Origin: a virus
Lineage: Duplodnaviria; Caudoviricetes
IMG/VR virus record: IMGVR_UViG_3300021091_000076
Span: 1 to 62,146 of that record
Length of the DNA: 62,146 nucleotides
Reading direction: 5' to 3' (one strand)
In this document: piece by piece, positions 35,091-57,544 of the stretch
Layout of the letters: every line of letters starts with the position of its first letter
How positions within the stretch are numbered: the first letter of the stretch is position 1
Translations under genes and position numbers: made by a program
Notes under the pieces: model-generated
The model's input: the letters and a program-made list of their open reading frames with translations, nothing else
The model's database searches: none
Told to the model about the DNA's origin: nothing

Positions 35091-35093
35091 GCA

Positions 35094-35101
35094 TATAAAT
35101 A
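35094..35101 (+). promoter_or_regulatory. Full T4 late consensus TATAAATA, leaderless spacing
   Basis: TATAAATA-CTAGC-ATG(35107). Confidence 0.8.
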
Positions 35102-35106
35102 CTAGC

Positions 35107-38012: not shown

Positions 38013-38014
38013 AC

Positions 38015-39630: not shown

Positions 39631-39631
39631 A

Positions 39632-40429
39632 ATGTTACAAATTTTAGAAAAAGATTACCAAGAAGGTATTAGATGGTTTGAAAATTGGAATGGCTTAAAT
39701 AGGGTAGATAGCCACGAATCTGTAAATGCTAATGTTCCTATTATAATAGGAGCAGATCTTCTTCGACCAGAAGTTAGAAACTTTTTAAATCTCAATCAAC
39801 CGGGCATTTATATAGCAAGAGGATACCTAGGAAATCATATACGTAAAACAAGATGGTGGTGGAGATATAGTATAAATTCATGGGCTAATACCAAGATACT
39901 AGATATCCCATATTCGAGATGGGATCTATTGAATTTAGAAAGACATCCTTGGAAAGTCAAAGAAGTAAAACGTGTATTAATCGCTCCTAGTAAGATGACA
40001 CAGCCTATATGGGATCCATCTAGCGGTTGGGGATGGGCTGAATATATGTCTACTCGATTTCCAGGAGCCGATGTTAAAATTAGATACAAGAAAGGCAAAT
40101 CAGGACTAAGATGGGAATCCTTATTCAAAGATTTAGATTGGGCAGATCTAGTTGTAGCACAAGGATCTGCCATAACAGCTGAGGCATTCTGGTACGGAAA
40201 AAAGGTCATTAGTCTAGGACCATGCACGACATGGGCTGCTGAGAAAAATACACTTAAAGATTGGAAAAATCCTAAAGAACCGGAATTAAGAGATTCTTGG
40301 CATGAACATCTTGCATGGTCGCAATTCACAGAAGAAGAATGGAAATCTCAAGAAGCACTACAGCTTATTGAAAAATATATAGGATCAATATTAGATTACG
40401 GTATTAGACACAATTACAAATTTAATTAG
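39632..40429 (+). CDS. GT-B-like protein, paralogue 3
   Basis: VLIAPS, VVAQGSAITAEAFWYG and LAWSQFTEEE motifs. Confidence 0.55.
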   Translation: MLQILEKDYQEGIRWFENWNGLNRVDSHESVNANVPIIIGADLLRPEVRNFLNLNQPGIYIARGYLGNHIRKTRWWWRYSINSWANTKILDIPYSRWDLLNLERHPWKVKEVKRVLIAPSKMTQPIWDPSSGWGWAEYMSTRFPGADVKIRYKKGKSGLRWESLFKDLDWADLVVAQGSAITAEAFWYGKKVISLGPCTTWAAEKNTLKDWKNPKEPELRDSWHEHLAWSQFTEEEWKSQEALQLIEKYIGSILDYGIRHNYKFN

Positions 40430-41435
40430 TTTTTCCTAATTTCAATAAAATTTTAAGTTCGTTATCTTTGTAATTATTTTTAGAAACTTGATCAAAGATC
40501 CACTGGTATGTTATTTCTAATCCAGTTTTTAATGGCTGTTTGTAATCCCAACCTAACTTATTTCTAATTAATGTATTATCAGAGTTACGACCTCTAACTC
40601 CTTCAGGACCAGATATATTTTTAATAGTTAATTTTTTTCCTGAAATATCTATAACCATCTGAGCTAATTGATTAATGCTGACCATTTCTTCGCTGCCTAT
40701 GTTAACTGGACCGGAGAAATCGCTGTTCATTAATCTAATAGTAGCTTCCACACATTCGTCGATAAACAAGAAGGATCGAGTTTGTTTTCCGTCACCCCAT
40801 ACTTCTATATATGTTCCGTCCACAGCTTCAGCGACTTTCCTACACATAGCAGCAGGAGCTTTTTCTCTTCCTCCTGCCCATGTTCCCTGAGGTCCGAATA
40901 TATTATGGTACCTAGCCACTCGAACTTGAATTCGGTAATTCCTCATTAATGCCAAAAATAATCTTTCACTAAAAAGTTTTTCCCATCCGTATTCGCTATC
41001 GGGCGCAGCAGGATATGCACTTTCTTCCGAACATAAAGGATTGTCGGGATCTTCTTGATTATAAGCAGGATACATACAGGCACTAGAGCTATAAAAAACC
41101 TTTTTAATTTGTTTAGCAACAATTTGCTCGACCACATTTAAATTAATAGTAGCCGAATTATGCATAATGTCAGCATCGTGCTCACCGGTAAAGATATAAC
41201 CTGCCCCGCCCATATCTGCTGCTAATTGGTATATTTCATCTATGTCGGTTGTAATAATATTTCTACAAATTTCTTGTTCTCTTAAATCTCCAATTATAAA
41301 TTCGTCTGCTGAAGTCGAGCTAAACTCTGGATGTTTTAGATCAACTCCTCTAACCCAATTACCTTCTGCTTTGAGACGTTTAACTAAATGAGATCCAATA
41401 AATCCACCGGCCCCTAACACTAAAATTTTTTTCAT
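40422..41435 (-). CDS. GDP-mannose 3,5-epimerase-like SDR
   Basis: GAGGFIG, LAADMGGAG, YSSSACMYP, YGWEK, GGREKAPAAMCRK and GPEGVRGRNSDN motifs. Confidence 0.88.
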   Translation of the reverse strand: MKKILVLGAGGFIGSHLVKRLKAEGNWVRGVDLKHPEFSSTSADEFIIGDLREQEICRNIITTDIDEIYQLAADMGGAGYIFTGEHDADIMHNSATINLNVVEQIVAKQIKKVFYSSSACMYPAYNQEDPDNPLCSEESAYPAAPDSEYGWEKLFSERLFLALMRNYRIQVRVARYHNIFGPQGTWAGGREKAPAAMCRKVAEAVDGTYIEVWGDGKQTRSFLFIDECVEATIRLMNSDFSGPVNIGSEEMVSINQLAQMVIDISGKKLTIKNISGPEGVRGRNSDNTLIRNKLGWDYKQPLKTGLEITYQWIFDQVSKNNYKDNELKILLKLGKTN

Positions 41436-42275
41436 TCACATCTCCATAAATTTTACTATTTCTCTAATACCATCCTTTAATTTGATTTCTGGTTTCCAAT
41501 AATTTAAAATATAGGGGTCGGCCTCATTTTTTGTTCCCATTTGCACAGCATCAAATGCTCTAGACGGAACAACATCTGTGCCCGGAAAATTTGAAGCAAC
41601 AATCTTCGCTACATCTATTATACTAGTCCATTCAAAACTTGTTACATGGTATTCCTTGTCTCTCGGCAACTCATTGTATTTTGTAGATAAAATATAAAGA
41701 CATTTTGAACAATCGGTAGCATGAAGAAATTGTCGTACTTCTTTGCCATCTGTCATCATATCTATTACTTTAGTATTTTTTGCCTTTAATACGAAATCTG
41801 TAACTGCGTGAAATTTTTCCGGATTAGTTTCGGGACCATATACATTCCAAAATTTAACTGTGATGCCATTAAGAGATGCAGCTATTCGTTCTCCAATGTT
41901 TTTTGTAACACCGTAAGAAGAAAATCCCATATTTGCCATTTGACTAGATGCAAATAAAAACGGTTTATTATATTTTTTAATTAAGTCAAATGTATTACTT
42001 ACTATTTTAATATTATTTTGAATAAAATCAAAACTGTCTTGATTTTTGTTTAGGTATCTCGATCCTCCAACATCCCATGCCAAGAAAAAAACAAAATCAC
42101 AGTCGACCATATATTGATCCAACTTTTTATTATTTGAAATTCTTAAGTCCTCATCTTCATTATCTTCAATGTCGAAAGTAATCACTTTGTGTCCGATTTC
42201 TTTAAGGTATTCGCAAAGAGGAACACCTACTTGTCCTGCAGATCCTAAAACCAGATATGTATTATTGTTTTTCAT
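41436..42275 (-). CDS. NAD-dependent epimerase/reductase
   Basis: GSAGQVG, FLAWDVGG, YGVTK, NVYGP and RQFLHATD motifs. Confidence 0.85.
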   Translation of the reverse strand: MKNNNTYLVLGSAGQVGVPLCEYLKEIGHKVITFDIEDNEDEDLRISNNKKLDQYMVDCDFVFFLAWDVGGSRYLNKNQDSFDFIQNNIKIVSNTFDLIKKYNKPFLFASSQMANMGFSSYGVTKNIGERIAASLNGITVKFWNVYGPETNPEKFHAVTDFVLKAKNTKVIDMMTDGKEVRQFLHATDCSKCLYILSTKYNELPRDKEYHVTSFEWTSIIDVAKIVASNFPGTDVVPSRAFDAVQMGTKNEADPYILNYWKPEIKLKDGIREIVKFMEM

Positions 42276-42276
42276 A

Positions 42277-42873
42277 TTAATATTTACTTGAATATTTTTT
42301 CCGCAAAATTGTTAGTCCGTTATTACTAGGTATTGTAGAAAATTCCCAAAAGTTGGGATTTAATTCTGCTACAGCTCTATAAGGACCACCATTGGCCCAT
42401 TGAGGAGAACATGTCGTAAGATCTACATGGTAATAAGGACACGTATTTCCATACATAAGATCATGTAGCAATACAACACTTCCTGGTCTAACTAGTTGGT
42501 CTATATATTCCAATTCTTGTTTGACATGCTCGTATGAGTGCCAATCGTCAACATAAATCAAATCATATTTTTCTTTTTGATTGGCTTTTTCCTGTAATAT
42601 CTCTAATGCATTTGCTTTTTTAAATGTCCAATATTTTTCAAATTCTTTAGGGCATTTGAATGTTGTTTCTTCAAGGTCTATAGATTCTAATTTTCCATTA
42701 GTAATATCGCATGCCATTAATAATGGCAATGTGGTTGATCCGTGCCTAACACCTAATTCTAAAATATTTTTGGCATTAATAGAAAGTGCAATAGAATATA
42801 AAGTAAGAAGATGTTTATCGCTATCCCCTATACCTTCTATGACAGTATTAACTAGTTGTTCCAAGTATTTCAT
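42277..42873 (-). CDS. Class I SAM methyltransferase (Methyltransf_24-like)
   Basis: ILELGVRHGST, DLIYVDDWHSYE and VLLHD motifs. Confidence 0.85.
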   Translation of the reverse strand: MKYLEQLVNTVIEGIGDSDKHLLTLYSIALSINAKNILELGVRHGSTTLPLLMACDITNGKLESIDLEETTFKCPKEFEKYWTFKKANALEILQEKANQKEKYDLIYVDDWHSYEHVKQELEYIDQLVRPGSVVLLHDLMYGNTCPYYHVDLTTCSPQWANGGPYRAVAELNPNFWEFSTIPSNNGLTILRKKYSSKY

Positions 42874-43544
42874 TTCAATTTTTCCATATCTTTTAAAAAT
42901 TCTGTTTCCATGTATAGCCTATAACTTTCTGCATCTTTACCGTAGTTTGAATCGACAATACTGCTTATTTCGTCTTTTTCTATGTGCGAGTGCTTACTGT
43001 AATGGTAATGTTTTATCATTACATCTTCAAATTTATAATATGTATCTAAATGAGTCGCCATAGCCCGCCAAAAATTATCGGCCCACAAAGACCTAAGACA
43101 GGGAGGCGCAAACCATCCCAACCTTCGAATTATATTCGAATCAATTACAGGAATAGAAATAAATTTTCTTTTGTCTACTCCGTCTTTGGCATGCACTATT
43201 CCTGTGCTTCCTAATTCATTTAGTTTTTTTATAAATCTTTTTTCATAGTTCTTTGTTTCAAAAACAATATCATCTTCCATAAAACCAATATATCGATATG
43301 TTGTAGAATATTTTACAGCAATATAATTAAGTAAATTTAGAAAAGATCCGTGAATAGGTTCGTTAATTTCCCAGATTAATTCAGTGTATTTTTGTTTCAT
43401 CTCATCATAACTTGTATCATCGGTATCAATAGCTATCAATAAATCTGAATATTCTTCAGTAGTATTGAGCCATGAAGTTATTAATTTTTGTAATCTTTCA
43501 GGACGTTTTCTTGACGGACATATCCATAATATTTTATCTTTCAT
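42870..43544 (-). CDS. GT2-like glycosyltransferase
   Basis: PSRKRP, IDTDD, FMEDD, WADN and IKHYH motifs. Confidence 0.72.
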   Translation of the reverse strand: MKDKILWICPSRKRPERLQKLITSWLNTTEEYSDLLIAIDTDDTSYDEMKQKYTELIWEINEPIHGSFLNLLNYIAVKYSTTYRYIGFMEDDIVFETKNYEKRFIKKLNELGSTGIVHAKDGVDKRKFISIPVIDSNIIRRLGWFAPPCLRSLWADNFWRAMATHLDTYYKFEDVMIKHYHYSKHSHIEKDEISSIVDSNYGKDAESYRLYMETEFLKDMEKLK

Positions 43545-44227
43545 TTATATGTTTCCCAAAAGGTTGTTCTTGTTAAACTTCTTTTACCGTCCTTTTTCAC
43601 CATTGCGATTCCCATAACATAATTATGAATCTGGATTCTAACATGATGTTGGTTGATGGCATTGTCTGCAGGTAAAAAGGTTTTAGAATATGCTTCTACA
43701 AGTTTTTTAGCAGCATGTGGTTTTATAGCATATCCGCAATTTCCAGGCATAGAGCTTTGATGGTAATTTTCTGCCGTTGGATCACCTTCCGGAGTTTCTA
43801 AATAGTGCATATACTTTCCGCTTTTTGTAGGATGTCCTAATGCCAATACTAGTACATCTTCCCAATCTATAGGAATATATTTTCTTGTTAATTTTATGTC
43901 ATCTTCCCAAATTATTATGGGTTCATCTAAATCAACACATTTTTGCCATAATCGATAGTGACTATAAAAACATCCTCGTACTCCCGGAGTAAAAGATTTC
44001 GGATTTTCTTTTTCCAAATCTACGGACGGATCAACTTTGTCTGGACCTTTTATACCCCACGGATGCAATTTTCTGTTTTCTTCTTCCATTAATCTAACAG
44101 CATCGTGGCCATATGTTCCTTCGAATAGTTCTACTTCTTCGCCGTATTCTTCTAATTTATTTTTTAGATCAATTGCCGTTTTTAACGATGCTTCAATCTT
44201 TGAAAGACAGATAATAAAGTTTTTCAT
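43541..44227 (-). CDS. GT25-like glycosyltransferase
   Basis: GCFYSHYRLWQKC, IIWEDD, GYAIKPHAAKKL and PAD motifs. Confidence 0.82.
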   Translation of the reverse strand: MKNFIICLSKIEASLKTAIDLKNKLEEYGEEVELFEGTYGHDAVRLMEEENRKLHPWGIKGPDKVDPSVDLEKENPKSFTPGVRGCFYSHYRLWQKCVDLDEPIIIWEDDIKLTRKYIPIDWEDVLVLALGHPTKSGKYMHYLETPEGDPTAENYHQSSMPGNCGYAIKPHAAKKLVEAYSKTFLPADNAINQHHVRIQIHNYVMGIAMVKKDGKRSLTRTTFWETYK

Positions 44228-45027
44228 TGCCAGTAACTTTCAGTTCTTTTTATTTTCAAATCGTTGACCTTACTACGGCCTAAATTTTTCCTGTCGCCTT
44301 TGAGGTGATCTAAATACGCCCCCCATTCGCTGTTGATCAGAGGATGACCTTCACCTTTAATTATGTTTTGACTCCAGTTGTATTCTTGTAATTTAAATTT
44401 TTTTCTAACAGCATCGAATACAAAACTGTCATGCCATTCGGCCAAAGTAAAAATTCCATATTCAGCGTCATCGTACATTCGTTGGAATTCTCTTATAAAA
44501 GATTGTACACACGGAGATCGCAAATTCAATGAATATAATCCACATTCTGAATATTTTCCTTCCCTCCCCAAATAACCTATATCTATATGAGGCGGACAAA
44601 ATTTTTCTATTGTTTTTAATTGGATAGGACTGTGACAAACAGTATCGGCATCCATCCAGAATAGTACATCTGCCTCACTTTTTCTTGCACAATCAAAAAT
44701 AGCATAAACTTTATGTGCGAATCTTACAGCATCCCACTTAAATCCTTTTCCAGCATCCTTGCGTTTAGATCTTATTGGATCATCGGTTACATTGCCGTTG
44801 GCTTTATTGACATTTTTCCAAATATTTTTAAATTCTGTCAATTCTTTTACGCTATCTAAATCTGTCAATGTAATTCTAGAGTGATCGGGTACTCTGGGAT
44901 TGCATTTTTCTGGATAAACATTAAGAATAATTTCTTCAGGCCAGTTTTTTACAAAAGTATCGATCATTCGCTGACCGTATTGTTTCAATCCCTGTTCATG
45001 GAAGGTAGTTACCACTTCTATTTTCAT
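44224..45027 (-). CDS. GT-A-like nucleotide-sugar transferase
   Basis: RFAHKVYA, WMDADT, SECG, EWHDSFVFD and DHLKG motifs. Confidence 0.7.
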   Translation of the reverse strand: MKIEVVTTFHEQGLKQYGQRMIDTFVKNWPEEIILNVYPEKCNPRVPDHSRITLTDLDSVKELTEFKNIWKNVNKANGNVTDDPIRSKRKDAGKGFKWDAVRFAHKVYAIFDCARKSEADVLFWMDADTVCHSPIQLKTIEKFCPPHIDIGYLGREGKYSECGLYSLNLRSPCVQSFIREFQRMYDDAEYGIFTLAEWHDSFVFDAVRKKFKLQEYNWSQNIIKGEGHPLINSEWGAYLDHLKGDRKNLGRSKVNDLKIKRTESYWQ

Positions 45028-45419
45028 TGTATTTTCCAAATATGCCAATTTTTTCCGATTTCTATTATTTGAAATCTTTCCTTTCTTAAAAATTTATTAA
45101 ATTCCATCGAAGTTGAGGGATCTCCCTCAACTATCAGTAGACACTGTATCCTTTTCCACAACGGCCTTAACTCAGGGATCAAATGTACTAGGTCTTTATC
45201 AATAAAAACGAAATCTATGTCATATAACGCATGTATCGATTCTAAATCTTCTCTATAAATTAAATTTTTTCGCCTAAGTGTTTCATCTTTAGGAAAAGTT
45301 AAAAAAATTGTAGAAGTATTTTCCAATAAATCTTCCATGTTTCCAAATGCAGATCCCAGCACAAGACCATTTCGGTAATGTTTGTTGACTTTTTTTATTC
45401 GTTTTGAAAATTTCCCCAT
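45024..45419 (-). CDS. Hypothetical protein, possibly a degenerate methyltransferase fold
   Basis: LVLGSAFG and IDFVFID. First gene of the minus-strand glycosylation arm. Confidence 0.55.
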   Translation of the reverse strand: MGKFSKRIKKVNKHYRNGLVLGSAFGNMEDLLENTSTIFLTFPKDETLRRKNLIYREDLESIHALYDIDFVFIDKDLVHLIPELRPLWKRIQCLLIVEGDPSTSMEFNKFLRKERFQIIEIGKNWHIWKIQ

Positions 45420-45429
45420 GATTTGCAAT

Positions 45430-45447
45430 TAAATACTCATATATTTA
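45430..45447. promoter_or_regulatory. Face-to-face late boxes serving the two divergent glycosylation units
   Basis: TAAATA (+, 45430-45435) and TATTTA (-, 45442-45447). Confidence 0.6.
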
Positions 45448-45456
45448 GTGAAGGTT

Positions 45457-46284
45457 ATGCGCTTCAAATTACATCAAGAACACGGTGCTTTAAACAGTCC
45501 TCCTATTTTTGCCGCAGTGGCGCAAGGGTTGCGAAATTCTGGCCACGAAGTGGTAAATTCTGAACAAGACATTGATGTCATATGGTCAGTTTTATGGCAC
45601 GGACGAATGAAAGGTAATCAGCAGGTGTATCAACAGGCAAAAAAACAAGGCCGGCCTGTAATGATCATAGAAGTAGGAAATATTTTTAGAAACATAACAT
45701 GGAGAATCAGTTTCAACCACATAAACGGACTTGGAAATTTTGGAAATTATGAAAATCTTGATCCAGACCGGCCAAAAAAGTTAGGTGTTGAATTGAAGCC
45801 TTTATTAAAAACTCGCCGTAGAGAAATTTTAATTGCATGTCAGCATGAACACAGTCTTCAATGGGAGGGAAATCCTCGCATGGCACATTGGGTCGAGAAC
45901 AAGGTGCAGGAAATTCAAAATTACACCGATATTCCAATAGCGGTAAGACCACATCCTCGATCACAATTTTCAATAAATGTCAAAAATGTTCGAATCGATC
46001 AACCTAAACAAATACCCAATACCTACGATGACTATAATTTTGATTACAATTATCATTGTATTGTAAATCATAACAGCGGTCCGGGAATTCGAGCCGCTCT
46101 AAGCGGTGTACCGATCATTGTTGATCAGAGTAGTTTGGCCTATCCGGTCGGTGATTCGATGCAAAATATAGAAAATCCCCACTTACAAGATAGACAAGAT
46201 TGGTTTATAAAATTAGTTCATTCAGAATGGACAGTGGACGAAATTTCTAAAGGAATACCGATAAAGAGAATTCTAAAAATTTAG
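45457..46284 (+). CDS. GT-B-like protein (KpsS-like), paralogue 4
   Basis: ILIACQ, AVRPHPR, VNHNSGPGIRAALSGVP and SEWTVDEISKG motifs. Confidence 0.62.
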   Translation: MRFKLHQEHGALNSPPIFAAVAQGLRNSGHEVVNSEQDIDVIWSVLWHGRMKGNQQVYQQAKKQGRPVMIIEVGNIFRNITWRISFNHINGLGNFGNYENLDPDRPKKLGVELKPLLKTRRREILIACQHEHSLQWEGNPRMAHWVENKVQEIQNYTDIPIAVRPHPRSQFSINVKNVRIDQPKQIPNTYDDYNFDYNYHCIVNHNSGPGIRAALSGVPIIVDQSSLAYPVGDSMQNIENPHLQDRQDWFIKLVHSEWTVDEISKGIPIKRILKI

Positions 46285-46326: not shown

Positions 46327-47514
46327 ATGACCCGATCTGTTTATATCGAAGACGTATTTTGTGAATTTTTTGATCTTTGTACAAGTAACAGTAATGTTAT
46401 GACCAGTCACGAGTTAAACACATGTCAAAGTTTTAATTATCAATTAATCAATAAAAATCAATTAACTCAAAATCAAGGTAATTTTATTCTTAAAATTTTG
46501 TCAAAGTATAGGGTGCCTGTTAAGAAATTAGGTCTAGACTATGATGAGGCATTGCTAAATCCTGTATGGAAACACAATTTTAGAGTAATTGATCTTTCTA
46601 AGAAAATATATGTGGAAAAAAATGAGGAAAGTATCGGCATCTGCATGAAATTTCCATATTCTCTTAAGAAAGATTTTGATTCAGAAATAGAAAATATAGG
46701 AGGCGGCCGGTTCAGTCAATGGGATCATGATCGGAAGTTACGAATTTTGAACGCCTACAACTATAATCTCATACAACTTTATGAATTTTGCCAAAAAAAT
46801 GCTTTTGAAATAGACGATTCGTTTCTGTCATTGATCAGTGAAGTTGAGGAAATATGGCAAAATCAAGAACACATTGTTACGCATGGAGTCATAAACGAAA
46901 ATTACGTTGTCTTAAAAAATGCTCCAGACAGCACATTAGAATTTTGGGAAAAAACTAAGAAAAACTCACTTTTACAAGACATGTTTTTGGCTAAGACAAT
47001 GGGTTATCCGGTGATGATTAATAAGACCGATAAAACTTTGTTAGAAAATATCTGTTCATCGAAAGAAAAGTTCTTCTGGTTTAAATCATTAGATGACTTC
47101 TTTTCTGTACATATGGATCTGGGTGGTATTTCGGCGGTATTATTAGATAGAAATACTAAAGATGTGGTAGAATGGCTCAAACATTTTATAGAGGTCAGTG
47201 ATCGATTCGTTTCTAGAGATGACGTGAAAGTTTGTTTTAGAGAAGACAGCGATAATAAATCTGTTTTAAATTATTGGATCAAAAGCAATGGCCTTGGCGG
47301 CAAGGTAGAGAATGGAAAAATCTTAATTTTTCACCACAAACCCCCCAAGTGGTTGTTTTCTAAGATTATAGATGTTAAAATTATATTAACAAATAGTTAC
47401 ACTCCGCATGCCGAGCCGATAACTTCTTCGTGGGTACATTCTCACCCATGCGTGTGTTATACTGGAGATGTTAAACCGACTGCGCCAAGGAAGTCAAAAA
47501 TTGTCAAATTGTAA
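46327..47514 (+). CDS. Hypothetical protein
   Basis: 395-aa ORF coupled to uvsW. Confidence 0.7.
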   Translation: MTRSVYIEDVFCEFFDLCTSNSNVMTSHELNTCQSFNYQLINKNQLTQNQGNFILKILSKYRVPVKKLGLDYDEALLNPVWKHNFRVIDLSKKIYVEKNEESIGICMKFPYSLKKDFDSEIENIGGGRFSQWDHDRKLRILNAYNYNLIQLYEFCQKNAFEIDDSFLSLISEVEEIWQNQEHIVTHGVINENYVVLKNAPDSTLEFWEKTKKNSLLQDMFLAKTMGYPVMINKTDKTLLENICSSKEKFFWFKSLDDFFSVHMDLGGISAVLLDRNTKDVVEWLKHFIEVSDRFVSRDDVKVCFREDSDNKSVLNYWIKSNGLGGKVENGKILIFHHKPPKWLFSKIIDVKIILTNSYTPHAEPITSSWVHSHPCVCYTGDVKPTAPRKSKIVKL

Positions 47515-48955
47515 GATAGTCATACGAGATGAGGTCAATATAAAAGTCGAAGGGCTCAGTGTGGAAACACGGAGAAAAATCGTAAACAAATTAAAATTTG
47601 ATCTTCCGTATGCTCGACATATGCCGGCTTATAAGTTAGGAAGATGGGACGGAACTAAAACTTATTTCGGTATAGGGGGCACTGGATATCTGGCACATAT
47701 TGACACTATTATCCCGATCATCGACGAGGAAGGATACGACATAGAAGTAGAAGATCTTAGACAACATCACGCATTTAATTTTGAAATCATCGATGAAAAT
47801 TATTGGTCCAGTCGAGGAAAGACTTGGCCTAAGGGACATCCGGAAGCAGGCAAATCCATCGTGTTACGTGACTATCAATATGATGTTGTTAATAAATTTT
47901 TAGAAAATCATCAAGCTCTACAGGAGGTAGCTACAGGTGCAGGAAAAACTATCACTACAGCGACGTTATCGCATCTTTGTGAGGCATATGGCCGTACGAT
48001 GGTTATTGTTCCGAACAAATCGCTTGTTGTCCAAACTGAGGAAGACTACAAAAATCTAGACCTAGACGTTGGCGTATATTTCGGCGATCGCAAAGAATTA
48101 AACAGAACACATACTATCTGTACATGGCAGAGTCTCAACATATTAGATAAGAAAAGCTATGATGACGAAACACTTACCTTAGCAGAATTTTGCGAAGGTG
48201 TAGTGGCCGTTATCGTAGACGAAGTGCATCAAGCCAAGGCCGATGTGTTAACCAAGTTACTCACACAAAACTTTAAAAATTGTGCTATTCGATGGGGACT
48301 TACTGGTACAGTTCCAAAAGAAAAATGGGAATATCAAGGATTGTTGGCCAGTATAGGACCAGTGATCAATCAAGTGTCTGCACACGAGCTACAACAAAAA
48401 GATGTATTAGCACAATTACACATTAACATTCTTCAAACTAACGAAGTGCAGGCATTTAGAAGTTATCAAGATGAGTATACATATCTTGTAACCAATCAAG
48501 AACGAATTAATTGGTTCGGCTCAAAAATTAAAGAGATATCGGCGTCGGGAAATACATTGGTGTTAGTCAATAGGATAGACACCGGCAATAAACTTATGGA
48601 TTTATTGTCAGATGCAGTTTTCATTTCTGGTGCTGTTAAATTAAGCGACAGGAAAGAAGAATATGATGAAATTAAAACTAGTGACGGCAAGATTATTGTG
48701 GCGACTTATGGTGTGGCCGCTGTGGGTATTAATATCCCTAGGATTTTTAATCTGGTTCTTCTGGAGCCCGGAAAGAGCTTTGTCAGGGTTATACAAAGTA
48801 TTGGACGAGGCATTAGGAAAGCCGAAGACAAAGACTTCGTTCAGATCTGGGACATCACCAGTGCATGTAAGTATGCCAAACGTCATCTTACCGAGCGAAA
48901 AAAATATTACAAAGAGGCCAACTATCCCTTTACAATAACCAAGGTAGACATATGA
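47501..48955 (+). CDS. uvsW: SF2 helicase UvsW-like
   Basis: LRDYQ, ATGAGKT, DEVH, GLTGT and QSIGRGIR motifs. Probable TTG start at 47501 after AAGGAAG. Confidence 0.9.
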   Translation: MSNCKIVIRDEVNIKVEGLSVETRRKIVNKLKFDLPYARHMPAYKLGRWDGTKTYFGIGGTGYLAHIDTIIPIIDEEGYDIEVEDLRQHHAFNFEIIDENYWSSRGKTWPKGHPEAGKSIVLRDYQYDVVNKFLENHQALQEVATGAGKTITTATLSHLCEAYGRTMVIVPNKSLVVQTEEDYKNLDLDVGVYFGDRKELNRTHTICTWQSLNILDKKSYDDETLTLAEFCEGVVAVIVDEVHQAKADVLTKLLTQNFKNCAIRWGLTGTVPKEKWEYQGLLASIGPVINQVSAHELQQKDVLAQLHINILQTNEVQAFRSYQDEYTYLVTNQERINWFGSKIKEISASGNTLVLVNRIDTGNKLMDLLSDAVFISGAVKLSDRKEEYDEIKTSDGKIIVATYGVAAVGINIPRIFNLVLLEPGKSFVRVIQSIGRGIRKAEDKDFVQIWDITSACKYAKRHLTERKKYYKEANYPFTITKVDI

Positions 48956-50309: not shown

Positions 50310-50775
50310 ACATATTGATCTTTTCAAAGAAATTATTCCTGCTGTAGATATCGGCATGAAAGAACTTTGGGATGCTGCTGAAGAAGAAGGTAAAAAAGAA
50401 ATCAAAGCCGATTTTTGGAATTTGAATAGATATATCAGTAATGTTAAATCTAACAATAGAGAATTGCAAGAACATTTTGTTTTAACAGTAAATGAATTTT
50501 ACAATAAAAATTGGGCAGCTATTCAAAAACATCCTAAGTTAGTATGGCAGACATTGTGTATGTGTAGCCACGAAAGTAAAAGAACATATTTTCACGAATA
50601 CATACCTTTGAGAACAGTAAAGAACAAAAAAGTAGAGTTTTTAGGTAAACTCTTTCCATCAACAAAGTGGAGCGATCTTGAAACACTTGCAGTTATTACC
50701 ACAGACAAAGAAATCAAACAATATTGCGAAGGCCTCGGTTGGGACAAAAAAGAGATCAATGCTATCAAGTTTTAA
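50299..50775 (+). CDS. Putative clamp-loader small subunit (T4 gp62-like)
   Basis: FWNLNRYIS, VNEFYN, HPKL and FHEYI pattern, in a replication context. Confidence 0.5.
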   Translation: MPNKHIDLFKEIIPAVDIGMKELWDAAEEEGKKEIKADFWNLNRYISNVKSNNRELQEHFVLTVNEFYNKNWAAIQKHPKLVWQTLCMCSHESKRTYFHEYIPLRTVKNKKVEFLGKLFPSTKWSDLETLAVITTDKEIKQYCEGLGWDKKEINAIKF

Positions 50776-51442
50776 ATGCGAATACTGCGGTAAAGATTTT
50801 GCCAAAGAAAAAACTTTGGCAGTGCATATCTGCGAGCAAAAAAGAAGACATCTAAGTAAAAATGAGAAACATGTTCAAGCCGGTCTAATGACATTTCAAA
50901 AATTTTACGACTTCGTTCAAAAAGGAAAAACACAAAAAACATTTGATGATTTTGCAAATAGTCCTTACTATACAGCTTTCGTGAAATTCGGTAGTTTTTT
51001 AGTGAACGCTGCACCTATATATCCTGAAAGATTTATCGAGTTTGTCATCAAAAGCGGAATAAAATTAGATCACTGGTGTCGTGATGAACTATATGAAACT
51101 TACATACAGGACCTAATAAAAATAGAACCTGCCGACGGAGCTGTGCAAAGAAGTATTACAACCATGATGGATTGGGCAGACAAAAATCAAGCACAATGGG
51201 AGCATTATTTTGCATATGTTAACTTGAACAGAGCTGCTCACGATATAAAAGAAGGACTAATAAGTCCTTGGTTAGTGTTAAATACCAAGTCGGGTAAGGA
51301 TATGTTAAAAAGAATGAACGACGAACAGTTGGATATTATTGGAGCGATTATTGATCCTAATTATTGGGCTAAAAAATTTAAATCGTTGCCTGCGGATATT
51401 GAACTGGTTAAAGACATTGTAAGGGAGGCCAAGATACTTTGA
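50759..51442 (+). CDS. Hypothetical protein with an N-terminal zinc finger
   Basis: FKCEYCGKDFAKEKTLAVHIC. Confidence 0.7.
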   Translation: MLSSFKCEYCGKDFAKEKTLAVHICEQKRRHLSKNEKHVQAGLMTFQKFYDFVQKGKTQKTFDDFANSPYYTAFVKFGSFLVNAAPIYPERFIEFVIKSGIKLDHWCRDELYETYIQDLIKIEPADGAVQRSITTMMDWADKNQAQWEHYFAYVNLNRAAHDIKEGLISPWLVLNTKSGKDMLKRMNDEQLDIIGAIIDPNYWAKKFKSLPADIELVKDIVREAKIL

Positions 51443-51657
51443 TGCCTAAAAGACCAGATCCTGAAATTGAAGAATTAAAAGATAATGAAGAGTTTATTTC
51501 TAGAGATGACATCGATATTGAAGTTAGATTGACCGAAGATAATACAGTAATGGTACAATTTTCTGGTTTTAACGACGACGAAGATGCTGAGGAGTATGCT
51601 CAATTTCTAGCAGACACACTTCCATTATTATTATTTGAAAGTACGAGATTGCAATAA
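51442..51657 (+). CDS. Hypothetical acidic protein
   Basis: TGATG and TAATG coupling to both neighbours. Confidence 0.65.
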   Translation: MPKRPDPEIEELKDNEEFISRDDIDIEVRLTEDNTVMVQFSGFNDDEDAEEYAQFLADTLPLLLFESTRLQ

Positions 51658-52235
51658 TGCCAGATATCGACATAGATTTTGTAGACAGAGAACAAGCACT
51701 GAAATTATTTCAATATACTTGTGCGAGTCGCATAGAAAATAATGAATTAGTTAAACATAATACCGGTGTATACATGCATCAAGTTCCTGTAGATCCTATA
51801 AAGAATTTATGCACATTGTCCTATGAACATGCGGAAGAACAAGGATTTTTTAAAATTGATTTTTTGAATGTTGGCATTTATAAAGGTATAAAAAACGAGG
51901 AACATCTCGTTCAATTAATGAAACAGGAGCCATTATGGGAATTACTTTTAGACGACCAATTTGTAAGTCTATTATTTCATTTGAACGGCCATGGTGCAAT
52001 TCTGAGGAAGACTTGCCCTACCTCAGTGGAACAATTAGCTGCCGTCCTAGCTATGATCCGCCCCGCGAAGAGGAATTTGATTGGGAAGACTTGGCCGGAG
52101 ATCATGACGGAAGTGTGGATTCCTCCAAAGACTGGTGAATATTATTTTAAAAAAAGCCACGCTATTGCCTACGCCATGGCTATTGTTGTACAGATGAATC
52201 TCATATGTGAACAAATAAGTTATGGATATTCTTGA
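51657..52235 (+). CDS. dnaE: Miniature DNA polymerase III alpha (family C) palm/fingers protein
   Basis: PDIDIDF, KHNTGV, GFFKIDFL, LAAVLAMIRP and YYFKKSHAIAYA motifs in only 192 aa. Confidence 0.82.
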   Translation: MPDIDIDFVDREQALKLFQYTCASRIENNELVKHNTGVYMHQVPVDPIKNLCTLSYEHAEEQGFFKIDFLNVGIYKGIKNEEHLVQLMKQEPLWELLLDDQFVSLLFHLNGHGAILRKTCPTSVEQLAAVLAMIRPAKRNLIGKTWPEIMTEVWIPPKTGEYYFKKSHAIAYAMAIVVQMNLICEQISYGYS

Positions 52236-52795
52236 TGGACTTTGATTCTTTTAGTTCTGCCCAGATGCAATCTAAACTTTGGCTAGTTCAAAGATTAGAA
52301 GATGCATTGAATGAACATCGTCCTACAGAGGAAGGATATAGATTATGGATACTGGCAGGATGGTATGGTATAACTAATTTGTTAATCAGAACCAGAAATA
52401 AAATACCTATACAAGAAATTAGATCTTTCGATATCGATCCGTCCTGTGAAAATATTGCCGATGCGATAAACAATCTTTGGGTATGGAAGGCATGGGAATT
52501 CAAAGCTCATACTGTCGATATAAATCATTTAAGCTACAATCCTAAACCGGACGTTATTGTAAACAGTGCGGTGGAACATATGATTTCAGATCAATGGTGG
52601 AAAAATATTCCTGAAAATACAATAGTATGTTTGCAAGCCAGCGACTTAGATCATAGTGATCATGTGAATAAAGTTTCGTCATCTAATGAACTTTTAAATA
52701 GATATAAATTACAAGAATGTTTTTATGAAGGAACAAAACGATTTCAATATGATCAAAATGGATTTAATAGATTTATGATCGTAGGGGTTAAGTAG
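52235..52795 (+). CDS. Class I SAM methyltransferase-like protein
   Basis: QMQSKLWL, ILAGWYG, SFDIDP, VNSAVEHM, DHVN and RFMIVG motifs. Confidence 0.6.
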   Translation: MDFDSFSSAQMQSKLWLVQRLEDALNEHRPTEEGYRLWILAGWYGITNLLIRTRNKIPIQEIRSFDIDPSCENIADAINNLWVWKAWEFKAHTVDINHLSYNPKPDVIVNSAVEHMISDQWWKNIPENTIVCLQASDLDHSDHVNKVSSSNELLNRYKLQECFYEGTKRFQYDQNGFNRFMIVGVK

Positions 52796-53159
52796 GTTTT
52801 CGGATTAAAGTAATAGATTTTCTCTTGATTCGTTTTACTATAATATCATTAAGGCTGGTACATGGCCCGAATAGTATCTTAACATCTTTGGTAGAAAAAT
52901 TCCTAATTATATACTTGAAATCAGTGATTTCTCGTAACAAGAAGATATTGATGGGAATCTGACGATTACTCTCCCACCACCAAACTTCACCCAATTCTAA
53001 AAATCTTTGTTTTTCCTGTTCTGTTTTAATTAAGGTATAATCATACATACTAGTGACCTGAGCGTCTTGATTTATGATGATTCCCACGTATTCTTGATCT
53101 ACGTGATTAAGTACACTAATGAATGGAAAATTTTGTTGTAAATTCTCTGTTATTCTCAT
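52788..53159 (-). CDS. Hypothetical protein
   Basis: 123-aa ORF with WWWESNRQIPINIFL. Confidence 0.7.
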   Translation of the reverse strand: MRITENLQQNFPFISVLNHVDQEYVGIIINQDAQVTSMYDYTLIKTEQEKQRFLELGEVWWWESNRQIPINIFLLREITDFKYIIRNFSTKDVKILFGPCTSLNDIIVKRIKRKSITLIRKPT

Positions 53160-54031: not shown

Positions 54032-55045
54032 ATGGCTCTTGTCTTAGATAAATTTCGAACTCTACTGCCACCTAAAACAAAAACTAGCCCGAGCGGATGG
54101 ACTAGTTTCAATGCTCCTTGCTGTCATCATAGAGGACATAAGTCTGACACTAGGAAACGTGCAGGTGTGACATTCGGAGATGGTATAGTCTACAATTGCT
54201 TCAATTGTAAATTCACTGCCAGTTGGCAACCAGGAAGGAATATAAACGAAAAGTTTAAAAATCTTTGTCGCTGGTTAGGCGCTTCTGATGACGATATAAA
54301 AGAATTAATTTTTGAAGCACTCAAGACAGAAAGCACAGATTATAAACAAGAAATATCTGAGCCTAGAGCAGTATTTTCAGAGAAAGATCTGCCGGGGGGT
54401 TCAATGCCTTTATTGAATTGGGTAAATGGCGAATATTGGAAAGACATATCTTTAGAATTAGAACCAGTTATATCCTACGTAGTTAACAGAGGCCACGATC
54501 CGTTTGACGGCAATTTTTATTGGAGCCCTGCTCAAGGTTATTCTGACAGAATCATTCTTCCATATTTTTATAATGGAAAAATAGTAGGTAACACAGCAAG
54601 AAAAATCACAGAAGGAAAGCCCAAATATATTTCAGATCAACATCCTTTCTTTGTATACAATTTAGACAATCAAGAAGAAGGAAACAAATACATATTTGTA
54701 GTTGAAGGACAGTTTGATGCATTGTCAATCGGAGGAGTGGGTCTTCTCACTAACGAAGTATCTGATCTCCAATCTAGGATAATTAACAGTATGGGCAAAC
54801 AGGTAATTGTTATACCTGATCAAGACAAAGCCGGATCTGTTTTAATTGATCAAGCAAAAAAACTTGGATGGGCCATAGCATTTCCTACGTGGGAAAAAAA
54901 TGTTAAAGATTGTGCCGATGCTGTTAAAAAATATGGTAGATTATTTGTAACAGTAGATGCTATTAAAACTGCCACAACTAATCCGGCTAAAATAGAAATT
55001 GAAAAAAGGAAACTCTTAAACGAGTTGGAAATTGAAAATGTTTAA
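54032..55045 (+). CDS. gp61: DNA primase
   Basis: Zn finger (PCC...YNCFNC), RIILP, PKY, and TOPRIM motifs VVEGQFDA and PDQDKAG. Confidence 0.9.
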   Translation: MALVLDKFRTLLPPKTKTSPSGWTSFNAPCCHHRGHKSDTRKRAGVTFGDGIVYNCFNCKFTASWQPGRNINEKFKNLCRWLGASDDDIKELIFEALKTESTDYKQEISEPRAVFSEKDLPGGSMPLLNWVNGEYWKDISLELEPVISYVVNRGHDPFDGNFYWSPAQGYSDRIILPYFYNGKIVGNTARKITEGKPKYISDQHPFFVYNLDNQEEGNKYIFVVEGQFDALSIGGVGLLTNEVSDLQSRIINSMGKQVIVIPDQDKAGSVLIDQAKKLGWAIAFPTWEKNVKDCADAVKKYGRLFVTVDAIKTATTNPAKIEIEKRKLLNELEIENV

Positions 55046-55154
55046 AAAAATAATCGAATTATTGATTTATCCTTATACAAAATTCAAAGAGAGAAGGGCT
55101 TGGAAAAAACGTTTAGAAGAATTGAAAAAACGTGATCCGTTTATATACAAATGA
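55038..55154 (+). CDS. 38-aa peptide absent from the ORF track
   Basis: MFKKIIELLIYPYTKFKERRAWKKRLEELKKRDPFIYK*. Overlaps the primase stop and is ATGA-coupled to the next gene. Confidence 0.7.
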   Translation: MFKKIIELLIYPYTKFKERRAWKKRLEELKKRDPFIYK

Positions 55155-56098
55155 TTACCTGGGGAATTAACGCATTAAATCACGGCAGTAGCCTTGCAGT
55201 GTTTGCCAATGGCAGACTGTCGATGTTTGAGTCTTGTAAATCAGATCATCTAGATTCTTCATTAATCCATAGAGCGTTTAATTATGGTGGCCCGGCTCAT
55301 ATTTTTTGGTATGAAAGACCGTGGTTAAAAAAAATAAGGCAAGCCAAGGCCGGCCAATGGCATAGAGTAGTAGATTTAGAAGATTTACCTAGAAGATATC
55401 TTAATAAGATCAATATCAAATATGCTAAATTACATTACACTCCTCATCATGGCAGTCATGCCGCTGCTGGTTATTATACTAGTCCATTTAATCACGCGGC
55501 TATTATAGTTTTAGATGCCATAGGCGAATTCGAGTGCGCCACCATATGGGAAGCCAGGTACGGAGAAATAAAAAAAGTTTGGAGTCGCAATTATCCTAAT
55601 AGTCTTGGATTATTTTATTCTGCATTTGCTCATCTCATAGGATTAAAACCTATTCTAGAAGAACATATATTTCAGCAGATGAGCGACAAGGGTGATTCTA
55701 GTCGATTCTATTCAACTGTTCTAGATTATATGTTACCTACTTTGCGTATGCCGAAAAATCTTCATCAGGGTGTAACTGACTGGCCGCATCCTATTGAGAC
55801 TGAACAAGATAGACACGACATAGCCGCAGCAGTACAAGAAGTTTTTGAAAGGCAAATAGAATTAATTCATAATCAAGCTAAAAAGTTAACTGGTGCCGAA
55901 TCTCTTGTTTATATGGGGGGATGCGCAATGAATTCTAAGGCCAATAAAAAAATTGTTGAGCCAATGTGGAAATATCGTTGGAGCCTACCTCAACCAGGAG
56001 ATCCGAGCTCTAGCATAGGTGCTGTTTTATATCATGAAAGATTTAGAGAATGGGATTGGAAGTTTGGGGTTGTAAAGCACATGGAAATTAGTGTATAA
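55151..56098 (+). CDS. Carbamoyltransferase N-terminal (Kae1-like) domain only
   Basis: HHGSHAA, LDAIGE, SLGLFY, GGCAMNSKAN and PQPGDP present. GPRALG and NTSFN of the C-domain are absent. Confidence 0.85.
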   Translation: MITWGINALNHGSSLAVFANGRLSMFESCKSDHLDSSLIHRAFNYGGPAHIFWYERPWLKKIRQAKAGQWHRVVDLEDLPRRYLNKINIKYAKLHYTPHHGSHAAAGYYTSPFNHAAIIVLDAIGEFECATIWEARYGEIKKVWSRNYPNSLGLFYSAFAHLIGLKPILEEHIFQQMSDKGDSSRFYSTVLDYMLPTLRMPKNLHQGVTDWPHPIETEQDRHDIAAAVQEVFERQIELIHNQAKKLTGAESLVYMGGCAMNSKANKKIVEPMWKYRWSLPQPGDPSSSIGAVLYHERFREWDWKFGVVKHMEISV

Positions 56099-56101
56099 TA
56101 A

Positions 56102-57544
56102 ATGATGATTAAAGATTACGGATACGAAGTACAAAAATTATATCTAGAATTAATGCTGGCCGACGCAGAAATATTTGTGAGGTGCCAAGGCATTTTCGAT
56201 CACACATTGTTCGATCGAAAGTTACAAGATGCTGCTGAATTTATTAATATCTATGCTAAACAATATTCAGTAATGCCAGATTATAATATGGTTAACGCAT
56301 CTTGTAGAATAGATTTACAAAAGCCAGAAGACATCAAAGAAGGACATAATGATTGGCTCATGGATGAGTTTGAGCATTTCACTCGTCACAAAGCTCTAGA
56401 ACGTGCTATCATTAACTCAGCGGATCTACTCGAAAAGAAAGATTACGGACAAGTTGAATCTATGATCAAGGAAGCAGTTCAAATATCCTTAACCAAGGAT
56501 CTTGGCACAGACTACTTTGAAGATCCTAGAGCTAGACTGATGCGCATCAAAGATAAGAATGGTCAAATATCTACTGGTTGGCCCACCCTAGATCGTAGAT
56601 TGTTTGGAGGTATGAATCGCGGTGAGCTTAATATTTTTGCTGGCGGTAGTGGTGCAGGTAAGTCGTTGTTTCTTGCCAACTTGGGTGTTAACTGGTGCCT
56701 TCAGGGGCTGAACGTTCTATATCTAACATTAGAACTTTCAGAAGACCTGGTAGCTATGCGTATTGATGCAATGACCACTGGCATTTCGACTAAAGAAATT
56801 TTCAAAGAGCTTGACGATGTTGAAATGAAAGTTCGTATTATAGGAAAGAAAGCAGGAAAACTCCAGATTAAATATATGCCTAGCGGTAAAACTGCTAATG
56901 ATCTTAGAGCATACATGAAAGAATTTGAAATCAAAACAGGTTCTAAGATCGATGTACTGCTGGTAGATTACTTGGATCTCTTAATGCCGGCTAGTCGTAA
57001 GATTTCGGCAGAAAACTTATTCATCAAAGACAAATATGTATCTGAAGAATTAAGAAATCTCGCGATGGAGAAACAATGTATTCTAGTAACTGCGGCACAG
57101 TTGAATCGTGGCGCTGTTGAAGAAGTTGAATTTGATCATAGCCATATTTCGGGCGGGTTGAGTAAGATTCAAACTGCCGACAATGTGTTTGGTATCTTTA
57201 CCAGTCGCGCCATGCGTGAACGAGGACGCTATCAGATACAGTTGATGAAAACACGTTCCTCGTCGGGTGTGGGACAAAAAGTAGATCTAGAGTTTAATTT
57301 AGAAACACTAAAAATCAGCGACCTCCCAGAAGAAGAACAAGAAAGCCACAATGGTGCTAGTAGAGGCAGTTCTAGTATTATCGAAAGCATCAAAGCTAGA
57401 TCAACGGTTCATCAGCCTAAAATTGATGCGGACGGTGGAATAGAAGATCCCACAAAAGGTGCAAGTTTAGGCAGAGTACGTGCTAATGTTGAGAGCACAA
57501 AACTTAGAGAAATTTTAAATAATCAATTCGGTGATGAAGAGTAG
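56102..57544 (+). CDS. gp41: Replicative DnaB-like helicase
   Basis: ISTGWPTLD, GGSGAGKS, TLELSE, VDYLDL, SEELRNLA and TAAQLNR motifs. Confidence 0.93.
   Translation: MMIKDYGYEVQKLYLELMLADAEIFVRCQGIFDHTLFDRKLQDAAEFINIYAKQYSVMPDYNMVNASCRIDLQKPEDIKEGHNDWLMDEFEHFTRHKALERAIINSADLLEKKDYGQVESMIKEAVQISLTKDLGTDYFEDPRARLMRIKDKNGQISTGWPTLDRRLFGGMNRGELNIFAGGSGAGKSLFLANLGVNWCLQGLNVLYLTLELSEDLVAMRIDAMTTGISTKEIFKELDDVEMKVRIIGKKAGKLQIKYMPSGKTANDLRAYMKEFEIKTGSKIDVLLVDYLDLLMPASRKISAENLFIKDKYVSEELRNLAMEKQCILVTAAQLNRGAVEEVEFDHSHISGGLSKIQTADNVFGIFTSRAMRERGRYQIQLMKTRSSSGVGQKVDLEFNLETLKISDLPEEEQESHNGASRGSSSIIESIKARSTVHQPKIDADGGIEDPTKGASLGRVRANVESTKLREILNNQFGDEE

Follow-up and report, generated by a model that had tools for sequence, protein, structure and literature searches.

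The window analyzed here is the whole of IMG/VR virus record IMGVR_UViG_3300021091_000076, 62,146 nucleotides (nt) of tailed-phage DNA with a CheckV completeness of 16%, which makes it a fragment of a genome of ~390 kb. Near-identical DNA is found in lake-water metagenomes, placing the phage in an uncultivated freshwater clade, and no RNA dataset is among the 24 runs that contain this stretch. The gene of interest encodes a protein of 192 amino acids (aa) that is probably the C-terminal unit (C-unit) of a minimal DNA polymerase III (Pol III) alpha subunit split over two genes. The C-unit covers the second half of the palm domain and a reduced fingers domain. The gene and its motifs are as follows:

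51657..52235, plus strand: probable C-unit of a split minimal DNA Pol III alpha, 192 aa; open reading frame (ORF) with an ATG start, assigned from phrog_11778, a family profile against the PDB, an AlphaFold2 (AF2) model, and VIA-align
51660..51680, plus strand: PDIDIDF strand, residues 2-8 (the product starts MPDIDIDF), aligned to MPDIDIDF of Mycobacterium tuberculosis (Mtb) DnaE1 (5lew, residues 413-420)
51852..51866, plus strand: KIDFL, residues 66-70, with K66 and D68 at the positions that K553 and D555, the third catalytic Asp, hold in E. coli, from a hidden Markov model alignment to VKFDFLGL of 2hnh, counted from residue 539
52047..52064, plus strand: LAMIRP fingers motif, residues 131-136, equivalent to ALFRPG of E. 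coli, whose last residue is 641, from the profile alignment
52146..52172, plus strand: FKKSHAIAY fingers motif, residues 164-172, equivalent to E. coli FNKSHSAAY within alpha 739-768, from the profile alignment

A preliminary description of this DNA had reported the ORF and its four motifs in DnaE order, and both lie exactly where it placed them. At the 5′ junction, the TAA of a 72-codon ORF overlaps the ATG of the C-unit gene (TAATG), and at the 3′ junction its TGA overlaps the ATG of the next ORF (TGATG). The protein matches the PHROGs family phrog_11778, labeled “DNA polymerase”, with an E value of 2.4e-65 over positions 8-194 of 197, and some source annotations of its relatives read “DNA polymerase III alpha subunit”.

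The active site residues of the C-unit are those of bacterial DnaE. D3 and D5 correspond to the catalytic D401 and D403 of E. coli alpha, and D7 to D405. In the available text of Timinskas et al. (PMC3919608), D401, D403, and D555 are the metal-binding triad throughout the C-family, and the position of D405 is held by Asp in all DnaE groups and by Asn in PolC. Because residue 7 is Asp and not the Asn of PolC, the C-unit is of the DnaE type. Equivalents of D401, D403, D555, D405, and K553 are all present, and the RP and KSH motifs of the fingers follow in the same order as in the DnaE of E. coli (2hnh, 5fkw), Thermus aquaticus (Taq; 3e0d), and Mtb (5lew).

Likeness to Pol III alpha is faint in single-sequence searches and strong at the level of the family. 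Searched alone against the PDB with phmmer, the protein reaches an E value of only about 1, yet the match consists of three colinear pieces of DnaE, and in NCBIfam it matches PRK05673 at E 0.0016. A profile was made from 87 full-length representatives of 50%-identity clusters, which are 29-64% identical to the protein of the window. At E≤1 this profile matches nine PDB sequences, every one of them a Pol III alpha, with E. coli 2hnh at the top (E 4.1e-6). The alignment pairs profile positions 54-139 with alpha 539-641 and positions 150-178 with alpha 739-768. The AF2 model built from the same 87-sequence alignment is compact, with a mean predicted local distance difference test score (pLDDT) of 96.6. 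When this model is compared with known structures by VIA-align, the top 12 rows are 12 chains of C-family polymerases. The best is PolC (3f2b; Z 9.5, root-mean-square deviation (rmsd) 3.2 Å over 185 residues, chain range 971..1296), followed by Taq alpha (3e0d; Z 9.3, rmsd 3.9 Å over 188 residues, 461..841) and, with the lowest of these scores, E. coli alpha (5fkw; Z 8.0, rmsd 4.2 Å over 183 residues, 401..781), so that bacterial DnaE is matched at Z 8.0-9.3 over 183-188 residues. The first unrelated chain scores Z 4.1. Foldseek returns nothing for the model at E≤0.001, though its top 11 rows are all C-family polymerases. Together, the family profile and the predicted structure settle the DnaE likeness of the C-unit.

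The catalytic residues are under strong constraint. D3, D5, K66, D68, and P136 are invariant in all 87 relatives, and D7, I134, R135, K165, H168, and A173 are at least 90% conserved. The triad is accordingly as intact as the preliminary description had claimed. Relatives of the C-unit are numerous: they form 419 clusters at 50% identity (E≤0.001), are encoded in 548 IMG/VR stretches, and, at E≤1e-3, account for 7,980 of 8,000 scored candidates, the scoring having covered about 8,000 90%-identity clusters per half of the polymerase. Of the 120 best, nearly all have 192 aa. The C-unit matches 96 phage records, all of them jumbo phages, and 95 of these matches cover at least 80% of the query. The copies in Phosso, Atu_ph07, and PA5oct-like and RaK2-like phages are 37-55% identical to that of the window.

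The gene is also constrained in length and in its coding changes. From 80 related IMG/VR loci, 76 C-unit coding sequences (CDSs) were extracted, giving 77 with that of the window, of which 69 have 192 codons, six have 191, one has 188, and one has 193. For the 69 ungapped CDSs, the ratio of nonsynonymous to synonymous substitution rates (dN/dS) by the Nei-Gojobori method has a median of 0.084 in the 10 pairs with dS of 0.02-0.5, 0.104 in the 65 pairs with dS of 0.5-1, and 0.134 in the 338 pairs with dS of 1-2. The C-unit gene of the window and its nearest relative (L011) differ by a dN of 0.159 and a dS of 1.40. The gene is under purifying selection. Since the aspartates are conserved, dN/dS is not near 1, and no full-length relative occupies this position, the evidence rules against decay, which the preliminary description had likewise thought unlikely.

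Among 527 candidates, only two matches appear to be longer than the C-unit (P0121 and P0122). Each is a single-member cluster from a single contig with an unrelated N-terminus, and both were read as chimeric contigs and set aside. P0121 has 350 aa; P0122 has 550 aa and carries a bacterial-type exonuclease and PHP segment, to which no more than the final 30 residues of a C-unit are attached. Both are probably assembly chimeras joined at a shared motif of the YFKKSHA type. A third long match, P0213 (1,386 aa), aligns in 16 stretches and is a tandem-repeat artefact. For Atu_ph07 (NC_042013.1, FDI40_gp074; locus L002, 7001..7567), the RefSeq CDS of the C-unit starts at 7073, and the tblastn match begins at 7001 with residue 1 of the query. 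The RefSeq start probably cuts off ~24 residues, including the catalytic PD.D.D strand.

A separate feature of the C-unit gene is a nested reading frame. At 51935..52138 on the plus strand, a 67-codon ORF with an ATG start lies in the +2 frame, preceded by AGGAG 5 nt before the ATG; its translation is putative. The +2 frame is free of stops for at least 60 codons in 63 of the 69 ungapped relatives, whereas synonymous-codon shuffles average 3.2 and never exceed 9, and the other alternative frame is so in none of the 69. The ATG stands at the same position in 64 of these sequences, and a motif resembling a Shine-Dalgarno site is found in 65. Synonymous change of the polymerase frame in the closer pairs (62) is modestly lower within the overlap (0.251) than outside it (0.310); at higher divergence the two are equal, and the proportion of synonymous differences (NG86 pS) is saturated overall.

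The mapping to E. coli alpha shows which parts of the polymerase are retained. The residues of the C-unit span alpha 401 to ~781, so that ~380 residues of alpha are compressed to ~190. Within this span, about 46 residues stand for alpha 406-538, a region that includes the thumb, and about 10 profile positions stand for alpha 642-738. Everything before residue 401 is absent, namely the PHP domain and the first half of the palm with its GRGS nucleotide-binding loop, as is everything beyond ~781, namely the DNA-facing helices 842-886 of the HhH region, the clamp motif at 920-924, the OB domain, and the tau-binding tail. These landmarks, and that of the thumb loop at 464-470, are taken from the available sections of PMC4703070. 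The loss of the PHP, HhH, and OB regions and of most of the thumb and fingers, as set out in the preliminary description, follows from this mapping, as does that of the clamp motif. The same description had called the protein a miniature polymerase, and in this respect it does not hold. The C-unit cannot polymerize alone because the half of the palm that binds the nucleoside triphosphate (NTP), with its GRGS loop, is absent; it is not a stand-alone polymerase.

Compared with complete C-family enzymes, the C-unit has the catalytic Asp triad in a Pol-beta-like palm. It lacks a complete palm in one chain with a GS loop and a PF07733 match above the cut-off, and it lacks PHP, thumb, full fingers with HhH, clamp motif, and OB. 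The closest structural match is the PolC of Firmicutes (3f2b), whose thumb is likewise reduced (PMC3919608, in the text available), whereas the inserted exonuclease, PHP, and N-terminal domains of PolC have no counterpart in the C-unit. A further difference from bacterial DnaE is that the first half of the palm is, in phages, the product of a separate gene.

That separate gene encodes the N-terminal unit (N-unit). In the complete genomes of the Sinorhizobium phage Phosso and the Agrobacterium phage Atu_ph07, PF07733 matches one further small ORF, of 177 aa in each. Both proteins cover PF07733 positions of about 18-98 and end in ...VGRGSS...LDF(D/S)EFL(N/E). A 210-kb contig of the clade of the window (G002) encodes a C-unit 68% identical to that of the window, a 155-aa N-unit, and an 891-aa family B polymerase (PolB). 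Taken together, the N-units of these three phages match PF07733 over positions of about 11-98 with E values of 5e-12 to 5e-9 and end in ...GRGSS...EFLN or EEFFKEI. In NCBIfam, the Phosso N-unit matches PRK05673 at positions 279-395, stopping immediately before the first catalytic Asp. The GVGRGS loop is invariant in the N-unit family. N-units are as abundant as C-units, with 7,984 of 8,000 candidates matching, lengths of 153-158 aa, and PF07733 in all of the matches listed, and at least 21 phage accessions are common to the sampled match lists of the two halves.

The two genes lie far apart. The distance from N- to C-unit is 224 kb in Phosso, 182 kb in Atu_ph07, about 167 kb in G002, about 43 kb in Callisto and MIJ3, about 34 kb in RaK2, and about 15 kb in XacN1. 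In RaK2 and Phosso, the N-unit gene is found upstream of the clamp-loader gene, at a distance of 1-3 kb. The numbering in the available text on Atu_ph07 (PMC6102473), with the clamp loader as gp312 and “Pol III alpha” as gp316, agrees with this placement. The preliminary description had offered as one possibility a split polymerase assembled with the products of neighboring genes. The C-unit is indeed a piece of a split polymerase; the partner is not among the neighbors that it named but is a distant PF07733-positive gene of 155-177 aa, located 15-224 kb away in relatives.

The termini of the halves are complementary. By alignment, the N-unit ends within a few residues of where the C-unit starts, which establishes that the two complement one another. 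A natural fusion with both halves in one chain (P0194, 375 aa) is also found. Its residues 1-180 are 31% identical to the Phosso N-unit (E 9e-19) and 30-37% identical to the N-units of the clade of the window, and its residues 190-371 match the C-unit of the window at E 2.9e-31. The mixed N+C alignments that include this protein (A4, A6, A7) were misaligned by MAFFT and left unused. A fold of it from an alignment with depth on the C half only (A8) gave pLDDT values of 92-98 for the C half and 35-79 for the N half, with a predicted template modeling score of 0.55, and is uninformative on packing.

The association of the halves was modeled with the N-unit of G002 and the C-unit of the window, each with its own alignment, in three runs with three controls. 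The interface score ipSAE is 0.91 in each of the three runs and 0.00 in the best of the controls, and the mark used for this score is reached by 116 of 157 solved complexes and by 2 of 215 mismatched pairs. Contacts are at least 95% alike across runs, and the partner has a pLDDT of at least 90. In the predicted interface, residues 114-128 of the N-unit, which hold the GVGRGS loop, pack against residues 2-9 of the C-unit (the Asp strand), residues 62-65 and 70 (beside K66 and D68), and residues 165-168. Binding of the two units is supported, rather than demonstrated, by this model.

Cyanobacteria offer a precedent for a C-family polymerase made from two distant genes, in the form of an intein-split DnaE. 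The phage polymerase is likewise encoded by two distant genes, but, going by the commonly given split site and intein sizes of the cyanobacterial system, the phage halves have no room for intein halves. The C-unit begins with M-P-D at the catalytic strand itself, and the N-units, when aligned to the fusion, end a few residues past the last palm helix. Joining by an intein was rejected from these termini. With no room for intein halves, the N- and C-unit must therefore associate non-covalently.

A split minimal Pol III alpha of this kind has already been described. According to the available part of Iyer, Anantharaman, Krishnan, Burroughs, and Aravind (2021, Viruses 13:63, PMC7824862), jumbo phages of group 2.2 encode a C-terminal unit that chelates Mg2+ and binds the template and a distant N-terminal unit that binds the NTP. 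In that account, the system accompanies a family B polymerase in T4-like jumbo phages, lacks the other Pol III domains, and suggests an ancestral, pre-fusion Pol III. The protein of the window has the form of the stand-alone C-terminal unit with its acidic triad, matches phrog_11778 end to end, and shows every feature of the system that can be examined on a fragment. No essential difference was found, the window adding an uncultivated lake-water clade in which the protein is mostly exactly 192 aa long. The family was described from sequence in 2021, and the gene of the window is a further member, not new in kind. The fusion of N- and C-unit, the placement of the two genes in their modules, dN/dS, and the complex prediction were not seen in the part of that paper available, and its supplements may cover some of them. 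The available text of the PaBG and PA5oct omics papers (PMC7412058, PMC7318152) contains nothing on this gene.

The membership of the C-unit in this family is established by the evidence above. The reading of the gene as the C-terminal unit of the two-gene minimal DNA Pol III alpha found in T4-like jumbo phages (group 2.2) is given a probability of about 80%. Under this interpretation, the C-unit would form a non-covalent pair with an N-unit of about 155-177 aa made from a gene of its own, a heterodimer to which the predicted complex points. As the N-unit ends about where the C-unit begins, the pair would rebuild one catalytic Pol-beta-like palm of ~350 aa. The rebuilt palm may add nucleotides to a primer on a template, and the pair would probably act as an accessory polymerase of low processivity beside the family B replicase.

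The neighborhood of the gene is that of a T4-type replisome, in agreement with the preliminary description. Genes for replication and recombination in the window include a gp32-like single-stranded DNA-binding protein, UvsX, UvsY, a UvsW-like helicase, a gp61-type primase, and a DnaB/gp41-like helicase, and those for the virion include tail sheath, tail tube, and large terminase. The genes around the C-unit are:

47468..48955, plus strand: UvsW-like helicase at the upstream end of the replication module (ResIII, DEAD, Helicase_C; phrog_16), at the same relative position in RaK2, Ettore, and Phosso
50759..51442, plus strand: C2H2 zinc-finger protein, a conserved upstream neighbor (phrog_11058, E 3.2e-64; weak zf-C2H2), at 79 of 80 loci
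51439..51657, plus strand: 72-aa acidic ORF whose stop overlaps the start of the C-unit, at 61 of 80 loci and conserved only within the freshwater clade
52232..52795, plus strand: 187-aa ORF joined by the TGATG overlap, at 8 of 80 loci, with no Pfam or PHROG match
52788..53159, minus strand: 123-aa gene (phrog_11637, E 5.1e-34), at 80 of 80 loci, following the C-unit in all relatives examined
54032..55045, plus strand: gp61-type DNA primase (Toprim_2; phrog_47, E 4.4e-31), at 65 of 80 loci
56102..57544, plus strand: DnaB/gp41-like replicative helicase (phrog_19, E 7.4e-71), at 57 of 80 loci

Two other neighbors, of 158 and 395 aa, are present at 75 and 34 of the 80 loci, respectively. The likely start of the zinc-finger gene is residue 28 of the longest ORF (from 50678), which is also where the Atlas record starts, and an Atlas search with this protein returns only viral hypothetical clusters. 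The acidic ORF has a 75-aa homologue in G002 that ends in the same LPLLLFESTRLQ. As a conserved partner of the C-unit it was rejected, for it has no similarity to the 71-aa ORF at the same position in Phosso. Downstream, the 187-aa ORF is missing in G002, where a reverse-strand 123-aa gene comes directly after the C-unit; it looks like a variable insertion outside the conserved module. The coupling on both sides that had been noted for the C-unit gene thus stands as far as the TAATG and TGATG junctions are concerned, but the downstream gene so coupled is this insertion. Opposite-strand genes similar in size to the 123-aa gene follow the C-unit in Phosso, Atu_ph07, RaK2, and Ettore. The order of UvsW, small genes, C-unit, reverse-strand gene of ~120 aa, gene of ~290 aa, primase, and DnaB-type helicase is stable in RaK2, Ettore (PA5oct-like), Phosso, and the window; Atu_ph07 shows only the part from the C-unit to the primase and helicase. 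A 315-aa gene (55151..56098, plus strand) lies between the primase and the DnaB-like helicase and is present at 51 of 80 loci.

The preliminary description had also pointed to PolB, PHP, and exonuclease genes as ones the rest of the genome might hold. PolB was found in four relatives (Phosso, Atu_ph07, G001, and G002), and therefore the mini-enzyme exists alongside a family B replicase and is no substitute for it. PHP (PF02811) was found in none of five records, two complete genomes among them, with a control that fires in 14 of 14 genomes, and a DnaQ-like exonuclease rises above the cut-off only in Atu_ph07.

Several observations weigh against the assignment to a two-gene polymerase. The window, 16% complete, has no match to PolB (PF00136) and none to the N-unit at E≤10 or E≤1, and the presence of both in this phage is inferred from its relatives. 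Even within the clade, the N-unit is found in one of five long contigs (G002) and is missing from G001, which is estimated to be 79% complete. The library signals are weak on both sides of the split: the C-unit sequence has no Pfam match even at E≤10, and a narrow N-unit profile (A3), searched against the PDB at E≤0.01, matches only the unrelated ORF67 and not Pol III alpha. The fusion was seen just once, in a single cluster member from a contig of 2,415 bases, and no relatives of it were found in two contig collections (viral_contigs and metagenome_contigs). The predicted complex was made with a non-cognate N-unit, taken from a contig (G002) that encodes a C-unit 68% identical to that of the window. 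Split-gene halves can, moreover, pass such a prediction through the model’s memory of solved single-chain Pol III alpha, in which case a pass reflects likeness rather than binding. The thumb loop 464-470 and the helices 842-886 (PMC4703070, sections available) fall in regions missing from the C-unit, and because these DNA-holding elements are missing, stable binding of a primer-template by the pair alone is uncertain. No bench test or other description of a split mini-polymerase was found in the literature.

The absence of thumb, clamp-binding motif, HhH, and OB also suits a pair that is an active Pol-beta-fold nucleotidyltransferase without being a templated DNA polymerase; a repurposed nucleotidyltransferase was the other possibility offered in the preliminary description. 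Such a pair might be a terminal transferase, might tail primers, or might act in nucleotide signaling or in anti-defence. A GS loop together with three acidic residues marks the nucleotidyltransferase fold in general (PMC11646218, in the text available), and no activity measurement was found in the literature. However, the IRP and KKSH motifs of the fingers, which are specific to the C-family, are at least 90% conserved, all 192 residues superpose only on DnaE and PolC, and both genes sit in replisome modules, with the primase and helicase in one case and the clamp loader in the other. PADLOC defence models have no match to the C-unit, the N-unit, or the fusion, and a non-templated enzyme is considered improbable. 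The conserved surroundings raise a different possibility, in which the C-unit forms a multi-subunit enzyme with its neighbors (the zinc-finger protein, the 72-aa acidic protein, the 168-aa or 395-aa protein, or the reverse-strand 123-aa protein), besides or instead of the N-unit. The zinc-finger, reverse-strand, and 158-aa genes are present at 79, 80, and 75 of 80 loci, similarly sized genes are found at these positions in RaK2, Ettore, Phosso, and Atu_ph07, and the stop of the acidic ORF overlaps the start of the C-unit. Yet no neighbor matches a polymerase-related family, the acidic ORF is unconserved outside the clade, the 395-aa and 187-aa genes are found at only 34 and 8 of 80 loci, and the N-unit fully accounts for the missing half of the palm. 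An enzyme built from neighbors is consequently given little weight.

A component with a fold derived from DnaE could also serve the replisome in a structural or regulatory role while being catalytically idle. The C-unit has no NTP-binding half and is no polymerase alone, and the gap in G001 would fit such a role, but the invariance of three Asp and K66 in 87 sequences that are 29-64% identical to that of the window is hard to explain without catalysis, and the N-unit keeps its invariant GVGRGS loop. The chance of an idle component is judged to be very small. Smaller still, and close to negligible, is that of a decaying fragment of a horizontally acquired dnaE. The protein has one sixth of the length of bacterial DnaE and no Pfam match, as a fragment might, but dN/dS values of 0.08-0.13, the 192 codons of 69 of 77 CDSs, thousands of relatives of the same length, and a compact model with a pLDDT of 96.6 speak for a maintained protein, and the only two longer matches of 527 are single-contig chimeras.

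The two-gene Pol III alpha thus remains the preferred interpretation, and a more specific role can be proposed for it. The two-gene mini-DnaE might be a dedicated polymerase for primer extension and hand-off, which would extend the products of the primase over a short distance before the family B replicase takes over. This proposal is drawn from gene order, which places the C-unit in a module with the primase and helicase and the N-unit in one with the clamp loader, and it is tentative and rather unlikely to be correct in this form. A comparable division of labor exists between DnaE and PolC in Bacillus and between Pol alpha and Pol delta in eukaryotes. If true, the hand-off role would belong to the smallest known C-family core and would offer a living model of the ancestral, pre-fusion Pol III. 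The family itself is the smallest known C-family polymerase core and is very abundant in environmental phages. An active pair would define the minimal parts required for catalysis of the Pol III type, would provide a tractable enzyme in two pieces, ~350 aa in all, for engineering and structural studies, and would mean that two unrelated families of polymerase operate together in T4-like giant phages.

Elsewhere in the window, a sugar and modification island occupies 34110..46284, between the recombination genes and the replication module. Its genes include three that resemble nucleotide-sugar epimerases, one that resembles a heptose kinase/adenylyltransferase, methyltransferases, a glycosyltransferase, and one resembling a 2-oxoglutarate-Fe(II) oxygenase, and the island could serve the modification of DNA or of surface glycans. 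A full-length carbamoyltransferase of 609 aa is encoded at 4018..5847. The gene at 7018..13182 on the plus strand encodes a virion structural protein of 2,054 aa, which matches phrog_5838 in three stretches with an E value of 5e-240.

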